A DNA stretch of 64,000 nucleotides from a virus. The notes under the pieces are model-generated. The model ran no database searches, had not been told where the DNA came from, and worked only from the letters and a program-made list of their open reading frames with translations. The position numbers and the translations under genes are program-made. This document shows positions 19,506-61,719 of this stretch, piece by piece; the stretch's first letter is position 1; each line of letters begins with the position of its first letter. The stretch spans positions 21,080 through 85,079 of the IMG/VR virus record IMGVR_UViG_3300031456_000001. The stretch is one strand, 5' to 3'.

Positions 19506-19859
19506 ATGAGCGGACCGAAGCCGGTCAAGCTGCTCGCCAAACTGCCGAAAGAGTCCAGGCTCAACGGCCTGGAGTCGGTACACGACCAGCTGGCCAGGTT
19601 CGGCACGGCGACGATCGTCATGACCGTGTCGACGAAGCTGGTCGAGCGGCACGCGGGCGACGTCCTGCAGCCGGTCATGCAGATCGAGCACGTCGAGGGC
19701 CTGCCGGCCGGCGCGCTCGCCAAGGCGGGCGAGCAGCTGATGACGCAGGCCCGCATCGCCCGCCTCGGCGGCGAGGAGGAGGCCCTGCCGCCGGAAGTCG
19801 TCGACTTCGGCCAGCCGGATGACGACAACGACGATCCTGAGCCATACCAGGTTGATTGA
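19506..19859 (+). CDS. Hypothetical protein
   Basis: AGGAG RBS; stop TGA lies inside the next TTGACA. Confidence 0.7.
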   Translation: MSGPKPVKLLAKLPKESRLNGLESVHDQLARFGTATIVMTVSTKLVERHAGDVLQPVMQIEHVEGLPAGALAKAGEQLMTQARIARLGGEEEALPPEVVDFGQPDDDNDDPEPYQVD

Positions 19860-43668: not shown

Positions 43669-43983
43669 TCAGCCGAACTCGATCATTCCTGCGGCCGCGG
43701 CCTCGGCGAAGCCGGGGATGGTGCCCAGTTCCCCCGCGGCGACCGGGATGATCTCCCGGCCGGTGAGGCCCTGCGCCTCCTTGCGTTGCTCCTTGTCGTA
43801 CAGCTCCCGTTCGGCGATGGCGCGGATGGCGCCGTGGTAGGCGGGGAGTCGGCGGGCGAAGCGGAAGAATTTCCCCGCCTCCATCTCCCACATGTTGTCG
43901 ATGCGGTGGACGGCCGACATGTCTGATTCAACGTCGTCGATGTAGTCGCGGACCCAGGCGATCTCCCCGATCCGCTCGGTCAG
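43669..43983 (-). CDS. Tail assembly chaperone, -1 frameshift extension (gpT-like)
   Basis: A AAA AAC at 43989-43983 leads into KLTERIGEIAWVRDY. Confidence 0.8.
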   Translation of the reverse strand: MTERIGEIAWVRDYIDDVESDMSAVHRIDNMWEMEAGKFFRFARRLPAYHGAIRAIAERELYDKEQRKEAQGLTGREIIPVAAGELGTIPGFAEAAAAGMIEFG

Positions 43984-44465
43984 TTTTTTGCAACCCCCTC
44001 CAACGCGCCCATGACCTTGACCATGACCTTGTTGAGCACGGCCTGGAGATCCTCGGGGCGGAGGCCCTTGAAGCCGACCAGGGCTTTCCAGCCGTCGTCG
44101 CCGATGACCGACTTGAGGAGGCGGCCGACGGCGACCCATTCGCTGTCGTGGGTGGCGGCGTCGAGGAACACCATGGCCAGGTGGGGGGTGAACTCGACCG
44201 GCACGCGGTATTCGACGCCGTCGAGGCTGAACAGCTTCTCCGTCTCGACCGGGTCGGCATCGCCGGTGTGGAAGTCGAGGTCCCCGTCGGGTGTCGGGGC
44301 CGCCTTGGCGGTCTCGTAGAAGTTGCGCAGCTCCGGCGGCACGTCGTCGAGGGCGGTGTGTCGCCGGGCGGGCGCCGCCTTCTTCACCGGCGCCCGCCTT
44401 GGCGTGGATGTGGTCTTCCCTGCGGTCTTCGCCGCGGCTTTCGTCGCGGTCCTGGCTGCCGGCAT
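43980..44465 (-). CDS. Tail assembly chaperone (gpG-like)
   Basis: Between major tail and tape measure genes; ends at a slippery site. Confidence 0.85.
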   Translation of the reverse strand: MPAARTATKAAAKTAGKTTSTPRRAPVKKAAPARRHTALDDVPPELRNFYETAKAAPTPDGDLDFHTGDADPVETEKLFSLDGVEYRVPVEFTPHLAMVFLDAATHDSEWVAVGRLLKSVIGDDGWKALVGFKGLRPEDLQAVLNKVMVKVMGALEGVAKN

Positions 44466-44531
44466 GGGGTTGCCTCCCTTTGGTGGAACGGTTTAGAGCT
44501 GCGTTACAGTAGCCATTCAGAGACCTGGATA

Positions 44532-53218: not shown

Positions 53219-54244
53219 CTACACCCGACCGCGTTCGAACATCTGTGCGGCGATCTTCTCTTCCCAGGTCTTCGGTGCGGCCTGCTGCCGGCCGCGGCCG
53301 CCGCCATCGACGTCGCGGGCGCCCCGGCTGGCCCGGGTTGCGGTCCGGGCCGTGGCGGCCGTCCGGCGTCGGGCCGGCTTGCGCTCCTCGAACAGGTTCG
53401 GGAAGTCCTCCTGGAGCTGCGTGATGGCCTCTTCGATGCCGAGCAGCTCGAAGCTGTCGCCGTCGAGGTCCAGGTCCAGCTCGTCGGGGTCGATGGTGCG
53501 CATGATCCGGCGCAGCTGCCGGTCGTCGCCGGTGAACCCGGCGTCGCGCAGGGCGAGGCGGGCGGCGTGCTCGGCGAGGATCGGCATCAGCTCTTCGCGG
53601 GCTTTCTGCTCGCCGCGGCGTTCCGCGGTCAGCACCGCGCGGGCGTGTTCCTTGTCCCGCTGCCGGCGGCTGCGTTCGTCGTCGCCGCGGCGCGGGTCGT
53701 CCTCGTACTGGTCGACGTCGGCGGTGTCGTCGCGCGGGTCGACGACGTCGTCGCCGTACGGGTGTCCGGTTTCGGGGTCGATGCCGCGTTCGGTGAGCCA
53801 GGTGCCGAAGTCGTCGATGCCGAGCTTGTCGGCGTACTTGCCGATGCGGCGGCGTTTGCCGGCTTCGGCGTTGGCCCGCTTCAGCGAGCCGGTGACCCGG
53901 TCCCAGGTGGCCCGGTCCGGCGGGGTCCAGTCGGCGTCTTCCCCGTCCTCGTCCTCGCCGTCGTCCTGCTGCTGGCGCCCCCGGCGGGCCTTCCGCGCGG
54001 CCGGCTCGTCCTCGTCGTCGTCATCGTCGTCCGCGTCGTCGTCGGCGTCCCGACCCGAATCGTCGTCGTCGTCGAACTCGGGATCGTCGCCTTCGTCGTC
54101 ACCGACCGCGAATTCGATTCTGCTGCCGCCGGAGCGGCCGCCCTGGGCGCTGTAGACGGGCACGCCGAGCACCGTGTAGGCGATCGGGGTGTAGGGCGAG
54201 GCAGAAGCCGCCCGTAGCCCAGGCTTGACTGCAGTGGTGGTCAT
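53219..54244 (-). CDS. Capsid scaffolding protein
   Basis: Acidic tract, helical core, ANAEA..RR, FPNLFE, DGG; upstream of the capsid gene. Confidence 0.8.
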   Translation of the reverse strand: MTTTAVKPGLRAASASPYTPIAYTVLGVPVYSAQGGRSGGSRIEFAVGDDEGDDPEFDDDDDSGRDADDDADDDDDDEDEPAARKARRGRQQQDDGEDEDGEDADWTPPDRATWDRVTGSLKRANAEAGKRRRIGKYADKLGIDDFGTWLTERGIDPETGHPYGDDVVDPRDDTADVDQYEDDPRRGDDERSRRQRDKEHARAVLTAERRGEQKAREELMPILAEHAARLALRDAGFTGDDRQLRRIMRTIDPDELDLDLDGDSFELLGIEEAITQLQEDFPNLFEERKPARRRTAATARTATRASRGARDVDGGGRGRQQAAPKTWEEKIAAQMFERGRV

Positions 54245-55126: not shown

Positions 55127-55186
55127 CTGGGGCCTCCTCGTTAGTGGAGACCCCAGGCTAGCAAACTGTCACGCGACGTGTCAACT
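55122..55186 (-). promoter_or_regulatory. Promoter, leader and RBS cassette (direct repeat of 33900-33964)
   Basis: TTGACA-N18-TAGCCT; upstream stop TGA lies inside TTGACA. Confidence 0.88.
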
Positions 55187-55597
55187 TCCGGGGTTGACGA
55201 GGTCGGGGTGGGCCATGTTGGCCTTGCGACTTCCGGTGTCGCCCTCGATGGCCTTGGAGTCGAGGTAGCGCCGCCGCAGCGCCTCCAAGAGGCGTTTGAT
55301 GGTCTGCGGCTTCGACGCGCCGGCCTCGACGGTGACCTTGTTGTCCCGGGCGACGGCCCGCAGCGCGGGCGCGCTGTAGCCCTTGAGGATGTTCTCGGCG
55401 GCGAAGTCGGACGGGGCGTTGCGCAGGCTGTAGGCCAGGTCCGTCTCGCCTTCGATGCGGGGGCGGAGCCGGGCGCGGTCGGCGTCGGTGGCGCCGACGG
55501 GAATGGGCGTCGGGGTGGGCGCCCGCAGGGCGGCGGGCGCAGCCGCGCGGACGGCCGGAGCCGCCGTCTCGGTGCGCCCGCCCTGCGGGCTTACGCT
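55181..55597 (-). CDS. Segment C of the frameshifted polyprotein
   Basis: Reached by a -1 shift at G GGA AAA (55603-55597); HeH-like YSAPALRAVARDNKV...KPQTIKRLL. Confidence 0.65.
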   Translation of the reverse strand, partial: SVSPQGGRTETAAPAVRAAAPAALRAPTPTPIPVGATDADRARLRPRIEGETDLAYSLRNAPSDFAAENILKGYSAPALRAVARDNKVTVEAGASKPQTIKRLLEALRRRYLDSKAIEGDTGSRKANMAHPDLVNPGS

Positions 55598-58500
55598 TTT
55601 CCCAGGCTGGCCAGCCTGGCGACCGCGGCGACCGCGGCGGTGGCGCGGGCCGCGCGCTGCGGCCGCCCCTCCAACCTCCTGAGGCCGTCGAAGGTCCGTA
55701 GGCGCTGCTCGGCGGTGAACTTGGCCCAATCCTCGGCAGTCACCCGCTCGGCGCCGTTGAGTAGCCCGAACGGGCTGGAGTCGGTGCCGCGGGACGCGGC
55801 GATGAGGTCCACCCCGGCGCGGCTGACGCCGAGCCTGTCGGCCGTGTGGCGTTCGGCGGTGTTGTGGATGCCCTTGCGGATCTCGTCGAGGGGGGTGCGG
55901 GTCGGTGCGAGCATGCCGAGGTGCGCGGCGACCTTGCGCAGTTCGGGTGCATTCATGTCGGCGGCGAGCCGGTCGGCCTCGTCGGGGGTGACGGTGCGCA
56001 GCTTCGCCACGAACTCTTCCGGGGTGGCCTTCGGTGCCGCGCTGTGCACCTGCGGTCCGGCGGCTTGCTCGGCGCCGACCTTGCGCAGGATCTTCTCGTT
56101 AGGTCGGGTGGCGTGCATGACGCCCCGGCCGCCGGTCGGCGTGGTGTAGGCGACCTTGACGTTTTTGACGCCGACCTCCGTGACGATGCCCCGCCGATAG
56201 CGGCTGAACGTGTCGACCATGACCACGTCGCCGGCTTTGACCGGCTGGTCGGGTGCGGCGGCGAAGCCGAGCTGCCGGGCGTCGTCGTCGCCCCCGGCGA
56301 CGGCCATCAGCTTCAGGGCCTCCTGGTAGGTGACGTCCCGGCCGAGCTTGGAGGTTTCGTGCCGGGCGGCGATCTCGATCTTGGCGGTGGCGCCGGTGCG
56401 GCCGCCGCCTTTCGGGGTGGGTGCGGTGTCGGCGACGTGCCGGAGACCTTCGCCGGTGATGTAGCTGCCGTTGACCCGCTCGCCGTCCTGGGTGGCCTCG
56501 GCCAGGTAGTTGCCCCGGATCAGCTCGCCGGTGATGTGGCCGGACTCGTAGGGGTTTTTGGTGCCCAGCTCCTTGGCGATGGCGTTGGCGTCCCTGGACC
56601 ATTTGATGGCGGCGTTGACCTCGGTCTTGTCGGGGTCATCGACGGTGTATCCGGGCTGGGGACCGAGGCGTTCGTGGATGACGGCGGCGGTGCGGAGCAG
56701 GCTGTCACGGCCGTGGGACAGCTCGGAGCGGGGCCGGGTGTCGCCGCCGGGCTTCTTCGTCACGTTCGCCTCCGTGGCGGAGGTCGGTGCGACTCGGTCG
56801 GCCTTGATGTGGGTGGTGACCGTGCTGGCACCCTTCCCGGCGGTCCCGTCGGCGCGCAGCTTGGTGCCGCGCACCATGACGTTGCCGTTGCGGTCCGGTT
56901 CGCCCAGCACTTCGACGTCGGCCAGCTGGTAGGGCTGCTTGTACGTCAGGTCGGCCCCGGCCGGGACCGTGATGGTCGAGCCGTTCTGGATGCGGTTCAC
57001 GTTCGCCTCCGTGGTGGGTGCGTTGCTCACCCCACCAGTATGCGAACTGTCACGCCGTGTGTCAAGTTGGCCGCGGCGTTCCGTCTCCAGCTTCGCCAGG
57101 CTCGCCTCGTGGCGCGCCCGGATGCCCGGCGTCAGGTCCGGCTTCGCGAGCGCGTCGCGGTGCTGCCGGATCTCCCGGTCGAGGGCCTCGCGGTCCAGTT
57201 CGGCGACCGTCTTGTTGCGGCCCTCGTAGCGATGGAACATGCGTCCGCTGATGCGGCGCGCATCGAGGCTGCCGCCGGTGCTGGCCGCCGTCTCGCCGTT
57301 GGTGAGGACGTCGGCGGCGTGGGCGATGGTGTCGGCCCAGCCCTCCAGGCGCGTCTCGCCGCTACCGTTCTCCGAGTGCACGGCATAGACCTGCTCGCCG
57401 TCGCGTACGGTCGAGGTGACCCACCCGGCGGTCTGGCCGTTGCGGTCGGTGACCTTGAACTCTCCGAACGGGTTGTCGGGGGTGTGCCGGATGCGGCCCA
57501 CCTTGAGGTCGGACCGCTGCCCGGACGGCCCGGCCATGATCTTGCGGTACAGGTCGGCGTGGTCCATCCGGCCGTCGGCGATGGCCCGGATCTTGGCGCC
57601 ATTGTCCTTCGGGTCCTTCGACTCCTGCAGGTCACTGACACGCTTCTCGGTGGCTGCGGTGCGGGCCTTGGCCAGGTTGGCGGTGCGCTTCTCCGCGGTG
57701 GCCGCACTGACCACCGGTGGGGCAGCGCCACTCCCCCGCTGCCTGCTGTTGATCCGGGCTCGCATGGCGTCCCAGCCGACGCCGTTGATCGTGAAGTCGG
57801 GGTTGCGGGTCTCGCCCCGGTCGACAGCGGCGAGCGCATCCGCGTACCGCCCGTCCTTCATTGCCAGGCGCGCCTGCTCGGCCACGTCGGCAGAGGCAGC
57901 CTTGCGGGCGGCCTCCTTCGCCCTACCGCCGTCTTTCGGCCCGTCGAGTACCCGGGGGTTGGCGTCGATGTGGGCGCGCACCGCGTCTTGGACGGTACTG
58001 GTGCCGTACTTCTTCTCCAGGGCCTGCAGGTGCCCTTCCGTGACGTACCGGGCGGTGTCGTCACGGCTGAGGTTGAGTGCGCCGCCGTGGTTGGCTGCGG
58101 CGTAGTCCTCGGTGGCCGCCTGGATGCGCGCCCGGTCGAGGGGCGCGATGGCGTCGCCCTTGCCCGGGGCGGCGGCGAGCGCGCCGCGCTTCGCGGCCGG
58201 GTTGATCCGGGTGCGGACGGGAGCGGCGGGCGCCTTCGCAGCCTCCGGCTTGACGACGTCGTGCGGCTGGATCCGGGTCTCGATCGTCCGGCCGTTCTGA
58301 TCGACCCGGCTCACGTGCAGCGTCTCACCCGGTCCGGCGTCGCGGGTCACCGTGTACTCGCGCGGCTTCGCGCCGGGCGGCAGGGCGAAGGTGGACAGCA
58401 CCTTGTCGCCCTTCTTGTGGCCGACCTCCCCGGCGAACACCTCCTCGTGCAGGGCGTGCATGTCGGCGGCGATCTTGGCCAGACCGGACGGCCCGGATGC

Positions 58501-59403
58501 CGGCGCGGGCACCTTGGCGGGCTTGGCCGACTCGCCGCGCAGCCGGGCGGCGGCCCGCTCCGCGAGCGCGTTGCCGTCGCGACGCCCCAAGATGGTCAGC
58601 TCGGTCGCCTGCTCTTCGCTGATGCCGCCGCCGGAGCGCACCTCGAAGTCGTAGTTCTTTGCGCCGGGGTCTCCGTCACCGGCCGCTGCGCGGACCGCGT
58701 TCCAGACGGCGACCTTCTCGGCCACCTTCGCATCGGCCTTGTCGGCACCCTCCGTGGTGGCCATGCTCGGCAGACTGTCGTGCAGCTTCTGCACTTCGCT
58801 GCGGGTGCGCGGGGTAAGGTCGGTGCGGGCCAGCTCGCCGCGCAGTACCTCGCCACCACGGCGATTGTTCTCAGCGGCAGCCCGCACCCGGGCGGCATTT
58901 TTCGCATCGAAGATGATCGACTCGGCAAGGGCGCGCTGGCCGTCCGGCAGTTTCTTAACAGCGGTGTCGCCGGGGATGCCGTTGGCCTTCTTCAACGCCT
59001 TGACGTGGGCTTTCGCAGCCTCTTCGACATCGATCCGACCCAGCGCCTGCGCCGCCGCGCTGGCCCGCTTCCGGTGGGCGAGGAAGTCGTCTTTCAGGGC
59101 CTGGTTCTCGTCCCGGAACACCTGGACCTTGCGGGCGGCGGCATCGATACGCCACGTCTCCCAGGCGGGAGTGTTCTCGAACTCTTTGAGCGCCTGCCGC
59201 CATTCCTTCTTGCGTTCGACGTCGAGCAGGTTGGTACCGCCGTAGCCGTTGATCTCGTAGTCGACACCCTGGGCGAACTGGGTTTTACGGTCGCCGCTCC
59301 AGCGGTTCGGGTCGCTCATGTCGACGCCGATAACGGCGCGGCCTTCGCTGGCCTGCGTAGTGCGCTTCGTCTCGACCGGTATCCGGCCGCGCATGGGGGG
59401 CAT
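55591..59403 (-). CDS. Large mosaic protein, segment B (putative internal virion / polyvalent protein)
   Basis: 1270-aa ORF between portal and scaffold; the frame is open upstream to the slippery site at 59469. Confidence 0.8.
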   Translation of the reverse strand: MPPMRGRIPVETKRTTQASEGRAVIGVDMSDPNRWSGDRKTQFAQGVDYEINGYGGTNLLDVERKKEWRQALKEFENTPAWETWRIDAAARKVQVFRDENQALKDDFLAHRKRASAAAQALGRIDVEEAAKAHVKALKKANGIPGDTAVKKLPDGQRALAESIIFDAKNAARVRAAAENNRRGGEVLRGELARTDLTPRTRSEVQKLHDSLPSMATTEGADKADAKVAEKVAVWNAVRAAAGDGDPGAKNYDFEVRSGGGISEEQATELTILGRRDGNALAERAAARLRGESAKPAKVPAPASGPSGLAKIAADMHALHEEVFAGEVGHKKGDKVLSTFALPPGAKPREYTVTRDAGPGETLHVSRVDQNGRTIETRIQPHDVVKPEAAKAPAAPVRTRINPAAKRGALAAAPGKGDAIAPLDRARIQAATEDYAAANHGGALNLSRDDTARYVTEGHLQALEKKYGTSTVQDAVRAHIDANPRVLDGPKDGGRAKEAARKAASADVAEQARLAMKDGRYADALAAVDRGETRNPDFTINGVGWDAMRARINSRQRGSGAAPPVVSAATAEKRTANLAKARTAATEKRVSDLQESKDPKDNGAKIRAIADGRMDHADLYRKIMAGPSGQRSDLKVGRIRHTPDNPFGEFKVTDRNGQTAGWVTSTVRDGEQVYAVHSENGSGETRLEGWADTIAHAADVLTNGETAASTGGSLDARRISGRMFHRYEGRNKTVAELDREALDREIRQHRDALAKPDLTPGIRARHEASLAKLETERRGQLDTRRDSSHTGGVSNAPTTEANVNRIQNGSTITVPAGADLTYKQPYQLADVEVLGEPDRNGNVMVRGTKLRADGTAGKGASTVTTHIKADRVAPTSATEANVTKKPGGDTRPRSELSHGRDSLLRTAAVIHERLGPQPGYTVDDPDKTEVNAAIKWSRDANAIAKELGTKNPYESGHITGELIRGNYLAEATQDGERVNGSYITGEGLRHVADTAPTPKGGGRTGATAKIEIAARHETSKLGRDVTYQEALKLMAVAGGDDDARQLGFAAAPDQPVKAGDVVMVDTFSRYRRGIVTEVGVKNVKVAYTTPTGGRGVMHATRPNEKILRKVGAEQAAGPQVHSAAPKATPEEFVAKLRTVTPDEADRLAADMNAPELRKVAAHLGMLAPTRTPLDEIRKGIHNTAERHTADRLGVSRAGVDLIAASRGTDSSPFGLLNGAERVTAEDWAKFTAEQRLRTFDGLRRLEGRPQRAARATAAVAAVARLASLGKA
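57037..57065 (-). promoter_or_regulatory. Intragenic promoter cassette
   Basis: TTGACA-CACGGCGTGACAGTTCG-CATACT, 6 nt, then in-frame GTG at 57030. Confidence 0.7.
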
Positions 59404-59409
59404 GCCACC

Positions 59410-59438
59410 AGCCTGACCGCTGTCACGCGACGTGTCAA
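59410..59438 (-). promoter_or_regulatory. Promoter cassette before the ATG at 59403
   Basis: TTGACA-CGTCGCGTGACAGCGGT-CAGGCT, 6 nt, then ATG. Confidence 0.7.
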
Positions 59439-59456
59439 CATGCCCGCCCTGCGGGC

Positions 59457-60782
59457 CTACGCTTTTGGGCCTGCCCCCTTCGCGAACTCGAACCGGTCCA
59501 GATTGCCGCTACGACCCTCGGCGCTGAGCTGCTCATGGCCGTGGATCTTCGTCAAGCCCGCCATCTTGCGGTCGTTGGCGATCAGCGCATCGATCAGCTC
59601 GGCCTTCGACTTGCCCTTCGTGGAGACGCTGCGGCGGCCGTATTTCTGCAGCCACTCCAGATCCTGGGCCTCGTAGTAGGACCGCATTCCGGCCTCGTCG
59701 AAGTTGGCGATCTCCGCCGCATATCCGATCTCCGGTGCCGGCGCCGTCTTCGCGACGGCCCGCTCCGCGGCGGCCGCGGCCACCGGGGACACCTGCGGCC
59801 TCGCCGGGCCGGTTTCGTCGCGCTGGCCGACACCCTTCGGGTTCAGCCGCATCTTGCGGGCCTCGTCTTTGGCCTTCAGTGCGTCGGCGATCTGCGCGTT
59901 GGACTTGCCCCGCCCGGAGATGCCGGCGATCCGGGCCAGCGCGAGCAGCGTGGTGCGGTCCATGTCGGGGTAAGCGGTAGCGCCGTTTTTGCTGTCGGGT
60001 ACGGCCTTGATGGCATCGACGACGGCACGGATGTCGACGCCGGGCTTGTCGAGGATGTCGGCGCCGAGCTGGCCGCCCTCGCCGGGCCTGGTGGCCAAGA
60101 GCGCGTCGCGGGGGTCGGTGTAGCCGGCCGAGGCGGCGGACCTGCGCGCGGCGACGGCTTTCGCGGCACCGCCGTAGCGGTTGGCGAAGTCGGCGTCGGA
60201 GACCTTCGGCACGTCCATCGACAGGGGCGCTTCGACGATGCCGCCGCGCTGTTCGGCGGCCATCTGGTCGGCCTTCTTCAACGCCCGGTCGGACAGGCTG
60301 GTGCGGGTCTTGCGGTCGAGCGGCACTGCCACGCCGCCCAGGCCACGCTGTTCGGCGATCCGGTCGGAGACCTGCTGCAGGGCGGGCTTCGGCTCCGCCT
60401 TCCGCGCAGCAACCGCCTTCGACGCCTTGCCGTAACGGCTCTCGATGTCCTTCTCGGACGTCTGCACGTCGAGGTTGACCGCTTTGGCGTTGATCGCCTC
60501 CTGCGCGTCCTGGGCCACCGTCCTGCGGGCACCCGGGGCAGCCTTCTTCGGCGCCGCCGCTTTCGTCGGCGGCGCGGCCTTCTTCGGCGCGCTGAACGAG
60601 CTGAACGGCTGCATACGCTCCTGGCGTTCACCGCCGTGCGTCATCGAGAAGCCCTTGACCCCGGCCTCCTGGGCGGCCTTGAACGCCCGCGCAGCCCACG
60701 CGGGGCTGCCCTTCTTCGCGAACCGACCGTCACTGGCCCGCGGGTGCTGCCACTCGCGGAAGATCCTCTTCGTCGCAGCCAT
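59457..60782 (-). CDS. HPR-motif protein, segment A (441 aa)
   Basis: GGAGAGG RBS; FREWQHPRASDGRF; PKKAAP repeats; ends at C CCA AAA GCG TAG. Confidence 0.8.
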   Translation of the reverse strand: MAATKRIFREWQHPRASDGRFAKKGSPAWAARAFKAAQEAGVKGFSMTHGGERQERMQPFSSFSAPKKAAPPTKAAAPKKAAPGARRTVAQDAQEAINAKAVNLDVQTSEKDIESRYGKASKAVAARKAEPKPALQQVSDRIAEQRGLGGVAVPLDRKTRTSLSDRALKKADQMAAEQRGGIVEAPLSMDVPKVSDADFANRYGGAAKAVAARRSAASAGYTDPRDALLATRPGEGGQLGADILDKPGVDIRAVVDAIKAVPDSKNGATAYPDMDRTTLLALARIAGISGRGKSNAQIADALKAKDEARKMRLNPKGVGQRDETGPARPQVSPVAAAAAERAVAKTAPAPEIGYAAEIANFDEAGMRSYYEAQDLEWLQKYGRRSVSTKGKSKAELIDALIANDRKMAGLTKIHGHEQLSAEGRSGNLDRFEFAKGAGPKA

Positions 60783-60783
60783 G

Positions 60784-61719
60784 TCAGCCTCTCCCCGCCC
60801 GGCGCGCCAGCTGCGCGCTCGCCTGATCCATCCAGCCCTCGACCTGCGTGCCACGCAGCGTACGACGCTTCGGCGCCCGCGCATTCTCCTGCCGGCCACG
60901 GGCCTGCACCCGCTTCATCGCCGCCACAAACACATTCGCCCGCTGCAGGCCCTCATCGTCATGGAGGTCGGCGCGGGCGCCGTACCCGAAGCGCCCCTCC
61001 TCCCAATCCCGCCGGATCATGACGGTCCGGCCCGCGGACGTCGCCGGCCGGACCCGTCGGTACACGCGCTCCGCGTCGTCCGGGCTCGTCCGATACTCGC
61101 CGCGGCGGAAGCCCAGAACGTGCTCTTTCTCCCGCTGCGACCGGCTCTTCGGCTTGCGCAGCTCGCTGATGCCGTGCCCCATGTCGTTCAGGTAGTTCGG
61201 CTCGTGCCGGCTGCCTGGCCGGGCCGGGTTGATCCACAGGCCGCCCGCGTCCGGGTGGGTCGACGGGCTCCAGTAGATGTGTTCACCGTTGATCCGGCCG
61301 GCGCCCTGCGGGTGCTCGCCGACCCGACGGTAACCGAGCCGTGCGGCCAGTGGTCGGTCGTCGGACACGTTCCGCCCGAGATATTCACCGTACTCGTTGT
61401 ATTTGCCGCCCTGGCCGTCGTGGTACATGACGCCGCTGTCGTGCTGCAGGCCGAGGTGGTTCCGGTATGTGTCGAACGCCCCCTCAAGGGCGTTCAGCTC
61501 ATCCTGCTCGGCGTCGGTGCGTTCCGTCCGCCCAGGCAGGCCGGGCACCTTCCACAACTCCAGAGCGCGGCGCGCCGCCTCGGCGTGCCCGGCCGGCGGC
61601 GGCTCACTGCGGCGTCGGGCGATGTCGACGGACACCCGTCCGACCCACGCGTCGACCCCGGCCCGGGTGAACTGGCCTTCACCGTCGCGGGGGTGCAGCT
61701 TCTCGTTCCAGTCACCCAC
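60784..61719 (-). CDS. HPR-motif protein (311 aa)
   Basis: WNEKLHPRDGEGQF at the N-terminus; directly after the portal gene. Confidence 0.75.
   Translation of the reverse strand: MGDWNEKLHPRDGEGQFTRAGVDAWVGRVSVDIARRRSEPPPAGHAEAARRALELWKVPGLPGRTERTDAEQDELNALEGAFDTYRNHLGLQHDSGVMYHDGQGGKYNEYGEYLGRNVSDDRPLAARLGYRRVGEHPQGAGRINGEHIYWSPSTHPDAGGLWINPARPGSRHEPNYLNDMGHGISELRKPKSRSQREKEHVLGFRRGEYRTSPDDAERVYRRVRPATSAGRTVMIRRDWEEGRFGYGARADLHDDEGLQRANVFVAAMKRVQARGRQENARAPKRRTLRGTQVEGWMDQASAQLARRAGRG

Follow-up and report, generated by a model that had tools for sequence, protein, structure and literature searches.

Near-identical candidate -1 frameshift cassettes at two junctions of a modular head-region gene in an uncultured actinophage lineage

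Are three consecutive reading frames beside a phage portal gene separate genes, or one gene whose parts are joined by ribosomal frameshifting? This question is raised by a 64,000-nt stretch of viral DNA (hereafter the window), i.e., bases 21080-85079 of the 85,079-bp IMG/VR record IMGVR_UViG_3300031456_000001, which has direct terminal repeats and 70% G+C. On its minus strand, the relevant order is portal, a 311-aa open reading frame (ORF), ORF A, ORF B, frame C, a 125-aa ORF, and a weak scaffold-like ORF (Table 1). ORFs A and B end in near-identical elements, here called cassettes, that combine a slippery heptamer, a stop codon, and a hairpin. Our analysis of the window and its relatives leans slightly towards A, B, and C being a single modular head-region gene in which both cassettes would serve as programmed -1 frameshift signals.

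The 3' end of ORF A reads GGC CCA AAA GCG TAG and that of ORF B reads CTG GGA AAA GCG TAA. At both junctions, an X_XXY_YYZ heptamer in the frame of the ORF is followed by a 6-nt spacer that holds the stop and by a GCCCGC-AGG-GCGGGC hairpin. The 25-mer common to both, AAAAGCGTAR plus GCCCGCAGGGCGGGC with R at the variable base, occurs exactly twice in the window with no mismatches (59466-59442 and 55600-55576) and still exactly twice in the whole record, even at two mismatches; none of 100 shuffles contained any match to it. The identical 25-mer does not include the triplets that precede AAAA, which are CCC at site 1 and GGG at site 2; despite this difference, both heptamers are slippery. Both junctions, A to B and B to C, have a -1 offset. 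At site 1, the -1 reading is PK-SVGPQGGHVDTSRDSGQAGG-MPPMR, the B frame being open from 59509, and the predicted trans-frame junction peptide is GAGPK-SVGPQGGHVDTSR; at site 2, the -1 reading is GK-SVSPQGGRTETAAP. Frame C contains no ATG, GTG, or TTG from 55729 to 55288. A preliminary description of the window had proposed these coordinates, strand, and 3' ends, the near-identical repeat, the layout of heptamer, spacer, and hairpin, both -1 readings, the want of a convincing start for C, and product sizes of 441, 1730, and 1867 aa, and our analysis agrees with it on all of them.

Coding signal was followed as the G+C content of third codon positions (GC3) in 30-codon windows. Frame A keeps a GC3 of 0.87-0.97 up to site 1 and then drops while frame B climbs to 0.87 (59460-59400); frame B stays at 0.87-0.97 until 55600, from where frame C gives values of 0.87, 0.93, 0.97, and 1.00. 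Upstream of 55600, the GC3 of frame C is 0.53-0.63, i.e., non-coding, and TTG 55729 was rejected as a start for frame C on this ground. Codons were counted in six reading frames, comprising the five head genes and frame C: GGA makes up 14 of 298 Gly codons (4.7%), CCA 5 of 194 Pro codons (2.6%), and AAA 30 of 170 Lys codons (18%). A scan of A, B, the portal gene, the 311-aa ORF, and the scaffold-like ORF found only two in-frame X_XXY_YYZ heptamers with Y being A or T, and these are the ones two codons before the stops of A and B.

Two related viral contigs (L003 and L004) encode a portal 63% identical to that of the window, followed by a 259-aa ORF and then by an uninterrupted ORF of 1843 aa. 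The N-terminus of this long ORF, VARTKRIFREWQHPRASNGRF, is A-like and its C-terminus corresponds to the domain of frame C. In the long ORF, residues 1-236 correspond to residues 1-232 of ORF A (29% identity, E = 2e-17) and residues 1730-1839 to residues 11-118 of the C extension (39% identity, E = 3e-16), and a 36-residue landmark from the middle of B is also present at 56% identity. A search with the 1843-aa ORF returned 20 proteins of 1094-2081 aa that are mosaics of shared modules; homologue counts given here refer to these 20 proteins minus the query (n = 19). The motif (W)QHPRD..GRF opens 16 of the 19, with P0014, P0020, and P0022 as exceptions, and the HPR-type N-terminal module is joined in frame to later modules in 16 of the 19. 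Modules of ORF B recur in homologues P0007, P0008, P0011, P0013-P0016, and P0019. The ADP-ribosyltransferase family PF03496 was found in two homologues (P0008 and P0010), besides which only weak Rho_N/SAP matches were recognisable in relatives. These comparisons support the interpretation that A, B, and C belong to one modular gene.

The ends and internal joints of the homologues also bear on the cassette. Nine of the 19 end in GKA and two in PKA, as do B and A, respectively. None of the nine proteins ending in GKA carries a C-type domain in frame, which was found in frame in eight others, i.e., in P0006, P0010, P0011, P0013, P0014, and P0018 by motif and in L003 and P0008 by alignment; the motif table of ends and domains left out P0001, P0002, and P0022. 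At the place where P0018 (compared as protein) reads HLGK-NVS-TEA in frame, the 80%-identical L130 has a cassette with the -1 reading GK-SVSPQGGR-TEA; because this -1 reading aligns there, the in-frame P0018 contains residues matching the codons that overlap the stop. Similarly, the GGRGKA and stop of L005 have an in-frame GGR(R)PKAEAA as their counterpart in P0011 and P0021, and P0008 reads GVTKAPKAEAAREAAP where P0017 terminates with GVTKSPKA. Such pairs at the same place indicate that the cassette occupies the position of a common in-frame linker, PKA(E/D)AA. The single-ORF relative retains ccG GGA AAA GCG at the homologous module end (L003:17416-17430), from where it reads on in frame, the stop and hairpin being absent.

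A search for the cassette in homologous loci, which the preliminary description had proposed as a check, gave seven further sites in seven related contigs, making nine sites in eight contigs (the window twice, L005, L008, L009, L130, L030, L064, and L090). L005, L008, and L009 were found by protein homology and the others by a pattern scan with a BLAST family filter. With a loose pattern applied to metagenomes, 6 of 120 sites had homology to the family, two of those six being duplicates of one contig; of the 40 loci obtained from viral contigs in a CCC-type scan, none belonged to the gene family (BLAST, 1e-5). The BLAST family database left out P0022 (other N-terminus, match in the middle only) and P0002 (raw translation of frame C), and L090 was assigned to the family solely by a 58-aa match. 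All nine sites consist of an in-frame GGGAAAA or CCCAAAA, then GCG or GCC, then a stop (TAG, TAA, and TGA all occur), and all have the arms GCCCG...CGGGC. The arms are invariant among sites and variation is confined to the loops: six sites have a 3-nt loop, that of L008 measures 8 nt, L090 combines a 5-nt loop with a seventh pair, and in L009 an inner stem is inserted in place of the loop. At all nine sites the -1 frame stays open, its length ranging from 82 to 1290 aa.

Terminators of actinobacteria are often devoid of T-runs, and the cassette hairpins may be T-less terminators of this kind. The sequence after hairpin 1 is ATGTTGACAC and that after hairpin 2 is GCACCGAGAC; neither is a T-run, and neither hairpin was among the six terminator-like sites of a terminator scan of the window. 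The cassette occurs once per record in four relatives, in this gene only, and does not occur in the record of the single-ORF relative. Its confinement to one gene, together with the want of a T-run and its absence from the terminator scan, argues that it is not a general terminator.

What the -1 frames encode was compared across these loci. The domain of frame C spans about 100 aa with the consensus PRIEGETD..AY..R.AP...AA..L.GY...GLRA.ARD......K..L...L...R..DS.AI, and frame C also contains RRRYLDS. Besides its in-frame occurrences, the domain lies in the -1 frame behind a cassette at four loci: the window, L130, L064, and, more loosely, L009 (the locus of P0020), where the diverged C-like frame has no start codon at all. 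An exhaustive HMMER search found the domain in 41 representative proteins, which are either giant ORFs or short called "genes". Some called proteins start inside the cassette (P0024, VSPQGGH; P0038, MSPQGGRTE), and P0047 is the L030 extension as called from its first GTG. In two relatives, the -1 extension ends in a PF03496 domain (L130, 10811-12388, E = 1e-20; L008, 13855-15927, E = 9e-10); slippage at these loci would set the number of copies that bear the ADP-ribosyltransferase.

RNA folding was used to compare the cassettes as potential stimulators. The local hairpin of 6 GC-rich base pairs has a predicted energy of -12 to -14 kcal/mol and begins 6 nt after the heptamer. At site 2, the 5' arm can alternatively pair with 55535-55521 to form a 70-nt stem-loop, likewise separated from the heptamer by 6 nt (-67 kcal/mol, z = -4.33), with none of 200 shuffles folding equally well or better. 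Long hairpins resembling the site-2 design with other inner sequence were found in L130 and L030 (-72.6 and -75.3 kcal/mol; z = -5.0 and -5.3 against mononucleotide shuffles), and folding of L064, L008, L009, and L090 gave no clear long hairpin of that design. In an RNAalifold analysis of four site-2-type cassettes, only the local stem was recovered, as an invariant element (covariation term -0.06); alignment of the long stem was not possible. The structure of the cassette is consistent with a frameshift stimulator; proof by covariation is lacking.

Among the sequencing runs listed for the window, none of them recorded as RNA, one contains all sampled words and is probably the source. An independent soil run from another study, X2, contains 9% of these words and was compared as contigs. 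One X2 record of 259 nt covers 59420-59604 with three differences and no gap, and diverges beyond 59420; it has the end of A, the cassette, and the promoter-like motif in common with the window. A second, of 324 nt and depth 3.2, joins 56760 to 55535 with one letter between, so that 1224 nt including site 2 are absent; by arithmetic, this single low-depth contig would be a natural in-frame fusion of B and C. The four-A cassette with its in-frame stop is also present in contigs from other samples and assemblers. Transcriptional slippage at the cassette was considered and rejected, a run of four A residues being too short on general grounds.

The region further contains recurrent promoter-like units. 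A 19-mer, TTGACACGTCGCGTGACAG, occurs nine times in the window at up to three mismatches compared with 0.06 expected. Six copies lie outside the giant gene, and five of these (all except the one at 19856) have a GGAG-type Shine-Dalgarno (SD) sequence and an ATG no more than about 70 nt downstream; the sequence is promoter-like in this setting. The copy at site 1 has no mismatches and begins 3 nt past hairpin 1, and a leaderless start of ORF B after CAGGCT is possible. The unit within ORF B is followed by a GTG and two GGAGG-N5-GTG units, and the motif directly after frame C would drive the next gene, which starts at ATG 55126. In homologues, the translation of the motif, (V/L)DT(P/S)R..S..GG, appears at module boundaries in zero to two copies per protein, and L003 has promoter-like units at the equivalent internal place (16351) and after the giant ORF (18513). 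Products of the gene are therefore probably nested from the N-terminal side as well, via in-frame internal promoter and start units.

Under the reading in which A, B, and C form one gene, the hairpin would hold the ribosome on the heptamer, with two possible fates. It might read GCG and then the stop, which would give the short form; alternatively, the two tRNAs on it would slip back by one base (CCA to CCC or GGA to GGG, and AAA to AAA) and reading would continue. Translation from the start of A would thus give products of 441 aa (A), 1730 aa (A-B), and 1867 aa (A-B-C), and the promoter-like motif and ATG that B itself has would give products of 1270 aa (B) and about 1407 aa (B-C). Slippage at site 2 would be the sole source of frame C. 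That ribosomes actually slip, and in what ratios the products arise, we infer from sequence comparison. The preliminary description had spoken of a nested polyprotein of three frameshift-linked ORFs: the linkage gains comparative support, strongly at site 2 and more weakly at site 1, where B has its own promoter-like motif and ATG, and a nested set of products is supported by comparison, while nothing here indicates the cleavage that the word polyprotein implies.

Several observations weigh against this reading. Hairpin 1 is followed by a promoter-like motif and B's own ATG, so that B could be made without recoding, and the cassette of L005 is likewise followed by a TTGACA unit and a GTG led by an SD sequence. 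The 18-codon open gap at site 1 is unremarkable at 70% G+C. The local hairpin alone is not unusual for its composition (z = -1.0 and -1.2), the longer fold at site 1, in which the 3' half of the hairpin pairs around the AUG of B, reaches a z of only -2.05, and no compensatory base changes were found in any stem of a four-sequence alignment. The cassette sites are of common ancestry and are not independent trials. A control on whether an open -1 frame is to be expected anyway, made with 97 unrelated sites from metagenomes that match the GGG pattern with a stop, proved uninformative: the upstream frame had at least 100 codons in 24, and 13 of the 19 of these that did not run off their contig had -1 frames of at least 100 aa, most of which cluster near 293 aa and apparently represent one unrelated gene family. 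Finally, in GCG-TGA variants of the cassette a GTG overlaps the stop, gene callers start P0024 and P0038 there, and termination-reinitiation could serve at such loci. One alternative, which we regard as unlikely, is that only site 2 works, with A and B as separate genes and only B and B-C nested; site 1 would then be a plain boundary of stop, terminator or insulator hairpin, promoter, and leaderless ATG whose cassette arrived by gene conversion. The fully matching promoter-like 19-mer 3 nt past hairpin 1, the ATG 7 nt past the -10 element, and the similar layout of L005 fit such a boundary, recent copying is suggested by the 25 nt in which the two sites are identical, and the X2 contig that diverges at 59420 points to module exchange between A and B. 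However, the copied 25-mer does not extend to the preceding CCC, and heptamer 1 uses the rarest Pro codon (2.6%). Recoding at site 1 is still favoured because of this rare-codon heptamer, the -1 offset and open gap in both the window and L005, and the in-frame fusion of the N-terminal module that is the norm in the family (16 of 19 homologues). On this evidence, site 2 very probably recodes, and site 1 also seems to do so, with distinctly less assurance.

The remaining explanations dispense with frameshifting altogether. If neither site recodes, the cassettes would be conserved gene ends, i.e., GKA or PKA with a terminator-like hairpin, and the downstream genes would start independently. B does have its own start, gene callers place the starts of some relatives' extensions within the cassette or shortly after it (P0024, P0038, and P0047), and a hairpin without a T-run is often found in terminators of actinobacteria. 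Such gene ends are nevertheless hard to reconcile with a frame C that is start-less for 103 codons and has neither an SD sequence nor a promoter motif, with an L009 extension that has no start of any kind, and with a coding signal for C that begins at the heptamer. The -1 offset is present at nine of nine sites, the rare codons of the heptamer are kept, in-frame homologues exist, and the hairpin is used nowhere else in these genomes, all of which make the absence of recoding quite improbable. Other recoding at the same place, e.g., termination-reinitiation at the stop, would draw on the nearness of the stop, two codons past the heptamer, and on the overlapping GTG of TGA variants (L090 and, by inference, P0024 and P0038). 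The TAG and TAA stops of the window, in contrast, yield an overlapping GTA, which is no start codon, and reinitiation would leave the heptamer unexplained, so we consider it very improbable. Least probable of all is that the gene is decaying or that the A-runs contain indels from assembly or sequencing: a homopolymer does adjoin a GC-rich hairpin, but the four-A cassette and stop recur in seven other contigs from other samples and assemblers and, at site 1, in the X2 contig, two identical stop-creating errors in one gene are implausible, and both flanking frames carry a strong coding signal.

Searches with the individual ORFs and with the locus helped to place the gene. Pfam and PHROGs searches of A, B, C, the 311-aa ORF, and the 125-aa ORF gave no match; neither MuF (Phage_Mu_F) nor any other Pfam family was found in A, B, C, or the 311-aa ORF at E values up to 0.01, nor was any found in the 311-aa ORF or residues 1-120 of A at E values up to 5. 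For ORF A, there was only a low-confidence Atlas model (pLDDT 0.48) without a usable structural neighbour, and a PDB profile search with the alignment of the C domain gave a single chance-level match (E = 0.44). A blastn search of the locus in distant mode and a tblastn search with ORF A had no match in 50,697 phage records, and tblastn with homologue P0016 matched the same records only through a 7% stretch in four Gordonia phages. The best cultured relatives of the portal are Streptomyces phages, at 25-28% identity, none with a higher portal identity being found. ORF A matched only itself in a word-indexed protein search, no homologue of ORF B was found in viral contigs, and a scan of genome contigs with an alignment gave no relative, so neither a prophage nor a host was found. 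Among the neighbours, the portal call of the preliminary description was borne out by PF05133 and phrog_104, and its scaffold call proved weak, with a PF06810 score below the cut-off and a marginal match to phrog_194 (Table 1). A W.E..HPRD..G.F motif opens both the 311-aa ORF and ORF A, and also the 259-aa and 277-aa ORFs at that place in L003 and L130; this N-terminus may be a shared head-targeting or portal-binding peptide.

Table 1. Features of the portal-scaffold region, with positions as numbered in the window.
Feature	Position	Strand	Details
Portal gene, 727 aa	61721-63904	minus	PF05133, E = 7.7e-10; phrog_104, E = 6.3e-39
311-aa ORF, family unassigned, N-terminus WNEKLHPRDGEGQF	60784-61719	minus	HPR-type motif in common with ORF A
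ORF A, 441 aa, N-terminal motif KRIFREWQHPRASDGRF, end GPKA-TAG	59457-60782	minus	
Slippery heptamer 1, C_CCA_AAA, in ORF A frame	59463-59469	minus	
Site 1: 6-nt spacer GCGTAG (stop 59459-59457) and hairpin GCCCGC-AGG-GCGGGC (59456-59442)	59442-59462	minus	-12.1 kcal/mol
Promoter-like unit TTGACA-17-CAGGCT, 7 nt before ORF B ATG	59410-59438	minus	
ORF B, 1270 aa, modular, end LGKA-TAA	55591-59403	minus	
In-frame promoter-like unit TTGACA-17-CATACT, translated LDTRRDSSHTGG	57037-57065	minus	19-mer at 57065-57047; unit also flagged by a generic scan
Slippery heptamer 2, G_GGA_AAA, in ORF B frame	55597-55603	minus	
Site 2: spacer GCGTAA (stop 55593-55591), local hairpin 55590-55576, long hairpin 55590-55521	55521-55596	minus	
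Frame C, 138-aa -1 extension, start-less over 103 codons, conserved C-terminal domain	55181-55597	minus	
Promoter-like motif directly after frame C	55166-55184	minus	Its TTGACA supplies the TGA stop of C
Scaffold-like ORF, weak	53219-54244	minus	PF06810, 29.4 bits (cut-off 35); phrog_194, E = 0.0075

The location between the portal gene and the scaffold-like gene, the great size and mosaic modules, the N-terminal motif in common with the 311-aa ORF, and the ADP-ribosyltransferase of relatives together suggest a protein of the polyvalent kind, with multiple modules, that is associated with the virion and delivered to the host. A broader synthesis is plausible, and we offer it tentatively. In this uncultured actinophage lineage, a portable recoding linker, X_XXA_AAA-GCG-stop-hairpin, would join the modules of a giant, probably virion-delivered effector and would be evolutionarily interchangeable with the in-frame linker PKA(E/D)AA. 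Together with the embedded promoter and start units, it would give isoforms nested at both ends, slippage would dose the C-terminal domain or, in relatives, the ADP-ribosyltransferase, and the locus would be the first phage counterpart of the gag-pro-pol double frameshift. If so, gene callers would systematically truncate or split these giant genes (11 of the 19 homologues stop at a cassette and several called proteins begin inside one), phages would be able to dose effector-bearing isoforms, and the family would be a natural case of in-frame and frameshift linkers replacing one another. The cassette would also offer a compact 28-nt signal for high-GC hosts.

The nearest precedent in phages is the lambda-type tail chaperone pair G/GT of long-tailed phages, which is expressed by a -1 frameshift. 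As in G/GT, a -1 slip near the end of a short form would produce a minor form extended at its C-terminus; unlike the pair of about 100-aa chaperones, the gene described here is a head-module gene of about 1.9k aa with two sites. G/GT pairs are recognised as two small ORFs upstream of the tape measure gene, whereas A, B, and C have 441, 1270, and 138 aa and lie between the portal gene and a scaffold-like gene. The preliminary description had likened the heptamers to the GGGAAAA type of actinophage tail chaperones, and this has a basis in print: two papers give GGGAAAA as the -1 slippery sequence of the tail assembly chaperones of Microbacterium phage Bush and report the site in mycobacteriophage TM4 (PMC11749239, PMC4626039). 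The window itself also contains a probable tail assembly chaperone pair (43672-44492, minus strand), in which a 170-codon frame ends GCA AAA AAC TGA (43989); A_AAA_AAC stands directly before the stop and the -1 frame has 104 aa with a GC3 of 0.90, making this a second, different -1 frameshift candidate in the phage. In an unrelated phage (L159), found by the CCC-type scan, a cassette of the present type lies at the chaperone junction, with phrog_344 upstream and phrog_337 in the -1 frame.

Capsid genes provide a second comparison. PMC6950654 names CCCAAAA as the slippery sequence of the major head gene of A2-like Lactobacillus phages, and T3 and A2 are among the phages for which the review PMC5009743 records -1 frameshifting in head genes. 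Both A2 gp5A/gp5B and T3/T7 gene 10A/10B resemble the present case in that a head-module gene gains a C-terminally extended second product by a -1 slip. They differ in having a single site in the major capsid protein and an extension that is often an Ig-like domain, whereas the gene of the window is not a capsid gene, has two sites, and would be extended by whole modules, such as the ADP-ribosyltransferase in relatives. The CCC-type scan also showed that L137 and some 25 viral contigs like it (e.g., L138, L142, and L143) have CCCAAAAGCGTGA and a GCCCG hairpin at the end of a 649-aa fusion that joins a head maturation protease to a major head protein (phrog_3270, E = 1e-208), with a -1 frame of 142 aa (phrog_31690); this site is either a capsid-extension frameshift or a GTGA-coupled gene. 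Two further loci of that scan, outside the family and with 66-67% G+C (L156:788-3996, minus strand; L171:24-3262, plus strand), have CCCAAAAGCGTAA and a GCCCGG..CGGGCC hairpin that link an ORF of 523 or 794 aa to a -1 frame, which has 548 aa in L156 and at least 287 aa in L171, where it reaches the end of the locus; the L156 frame weakly matches "minor head protein and DNA pilot" (phrog_4529, E = 4e-5).

The signal itself resembles those of E. coli dnaX (tau/gamma) and of IS3/IS911-type elements, in which a heptamer ending in a Lys codon is followed by a stem-loop about 6 nt downstream. Slippage in dnaX yields a shorter product and is helped by an upstream SD-like stimulator; in the present gene it would yield a longer product, and an upstream SD-like stretch is present at some cassette sites only. 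With respect to the encoded protein, the closest likeness is to polyvalent proteins and MuF toxins (PMC5512222, PMC5576092), whose genes lie beside the portal and specify very large mosaic proteins with exchangeable effector modules, ADP-ribosyltransferases among them. The gene has the same head-module position; it departs from them in that neither MuF nor another Pfam domain was detected in the ORFs of the window, in which no effector domain was recognisable. The word "frameshift" does not occur in either of the two papers (Iyer et al., 2017; Jamet et al., 2017), and our literature searches found no published frameshift in a polyvalent or giant head-module gene and no two sites in one phage gene.

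While -1 frameshifting in phage tail chaperones is textbook knowledge and a few capsid proteins use it too, we found no report of the two features that appear new here, i.e., two serial sites in one gene and a cassette recurring across a family as a connector of modules. For two serial sites, the comparison leads outside phages: according to the review PMC5009743, certain retroviruses use two -1 events, of which the first is the more efficient. Retroviral gag-pro-pol belongs to eukaryotic RNA viruses, relies on pseudoknot stimulators, and yields products that are cleaved by a protease, so it serves as a working analogy only, with no homology implied. The likeness is one of design, in that two -1 sites in series would allow a single start to give three nested products of falling abundance.

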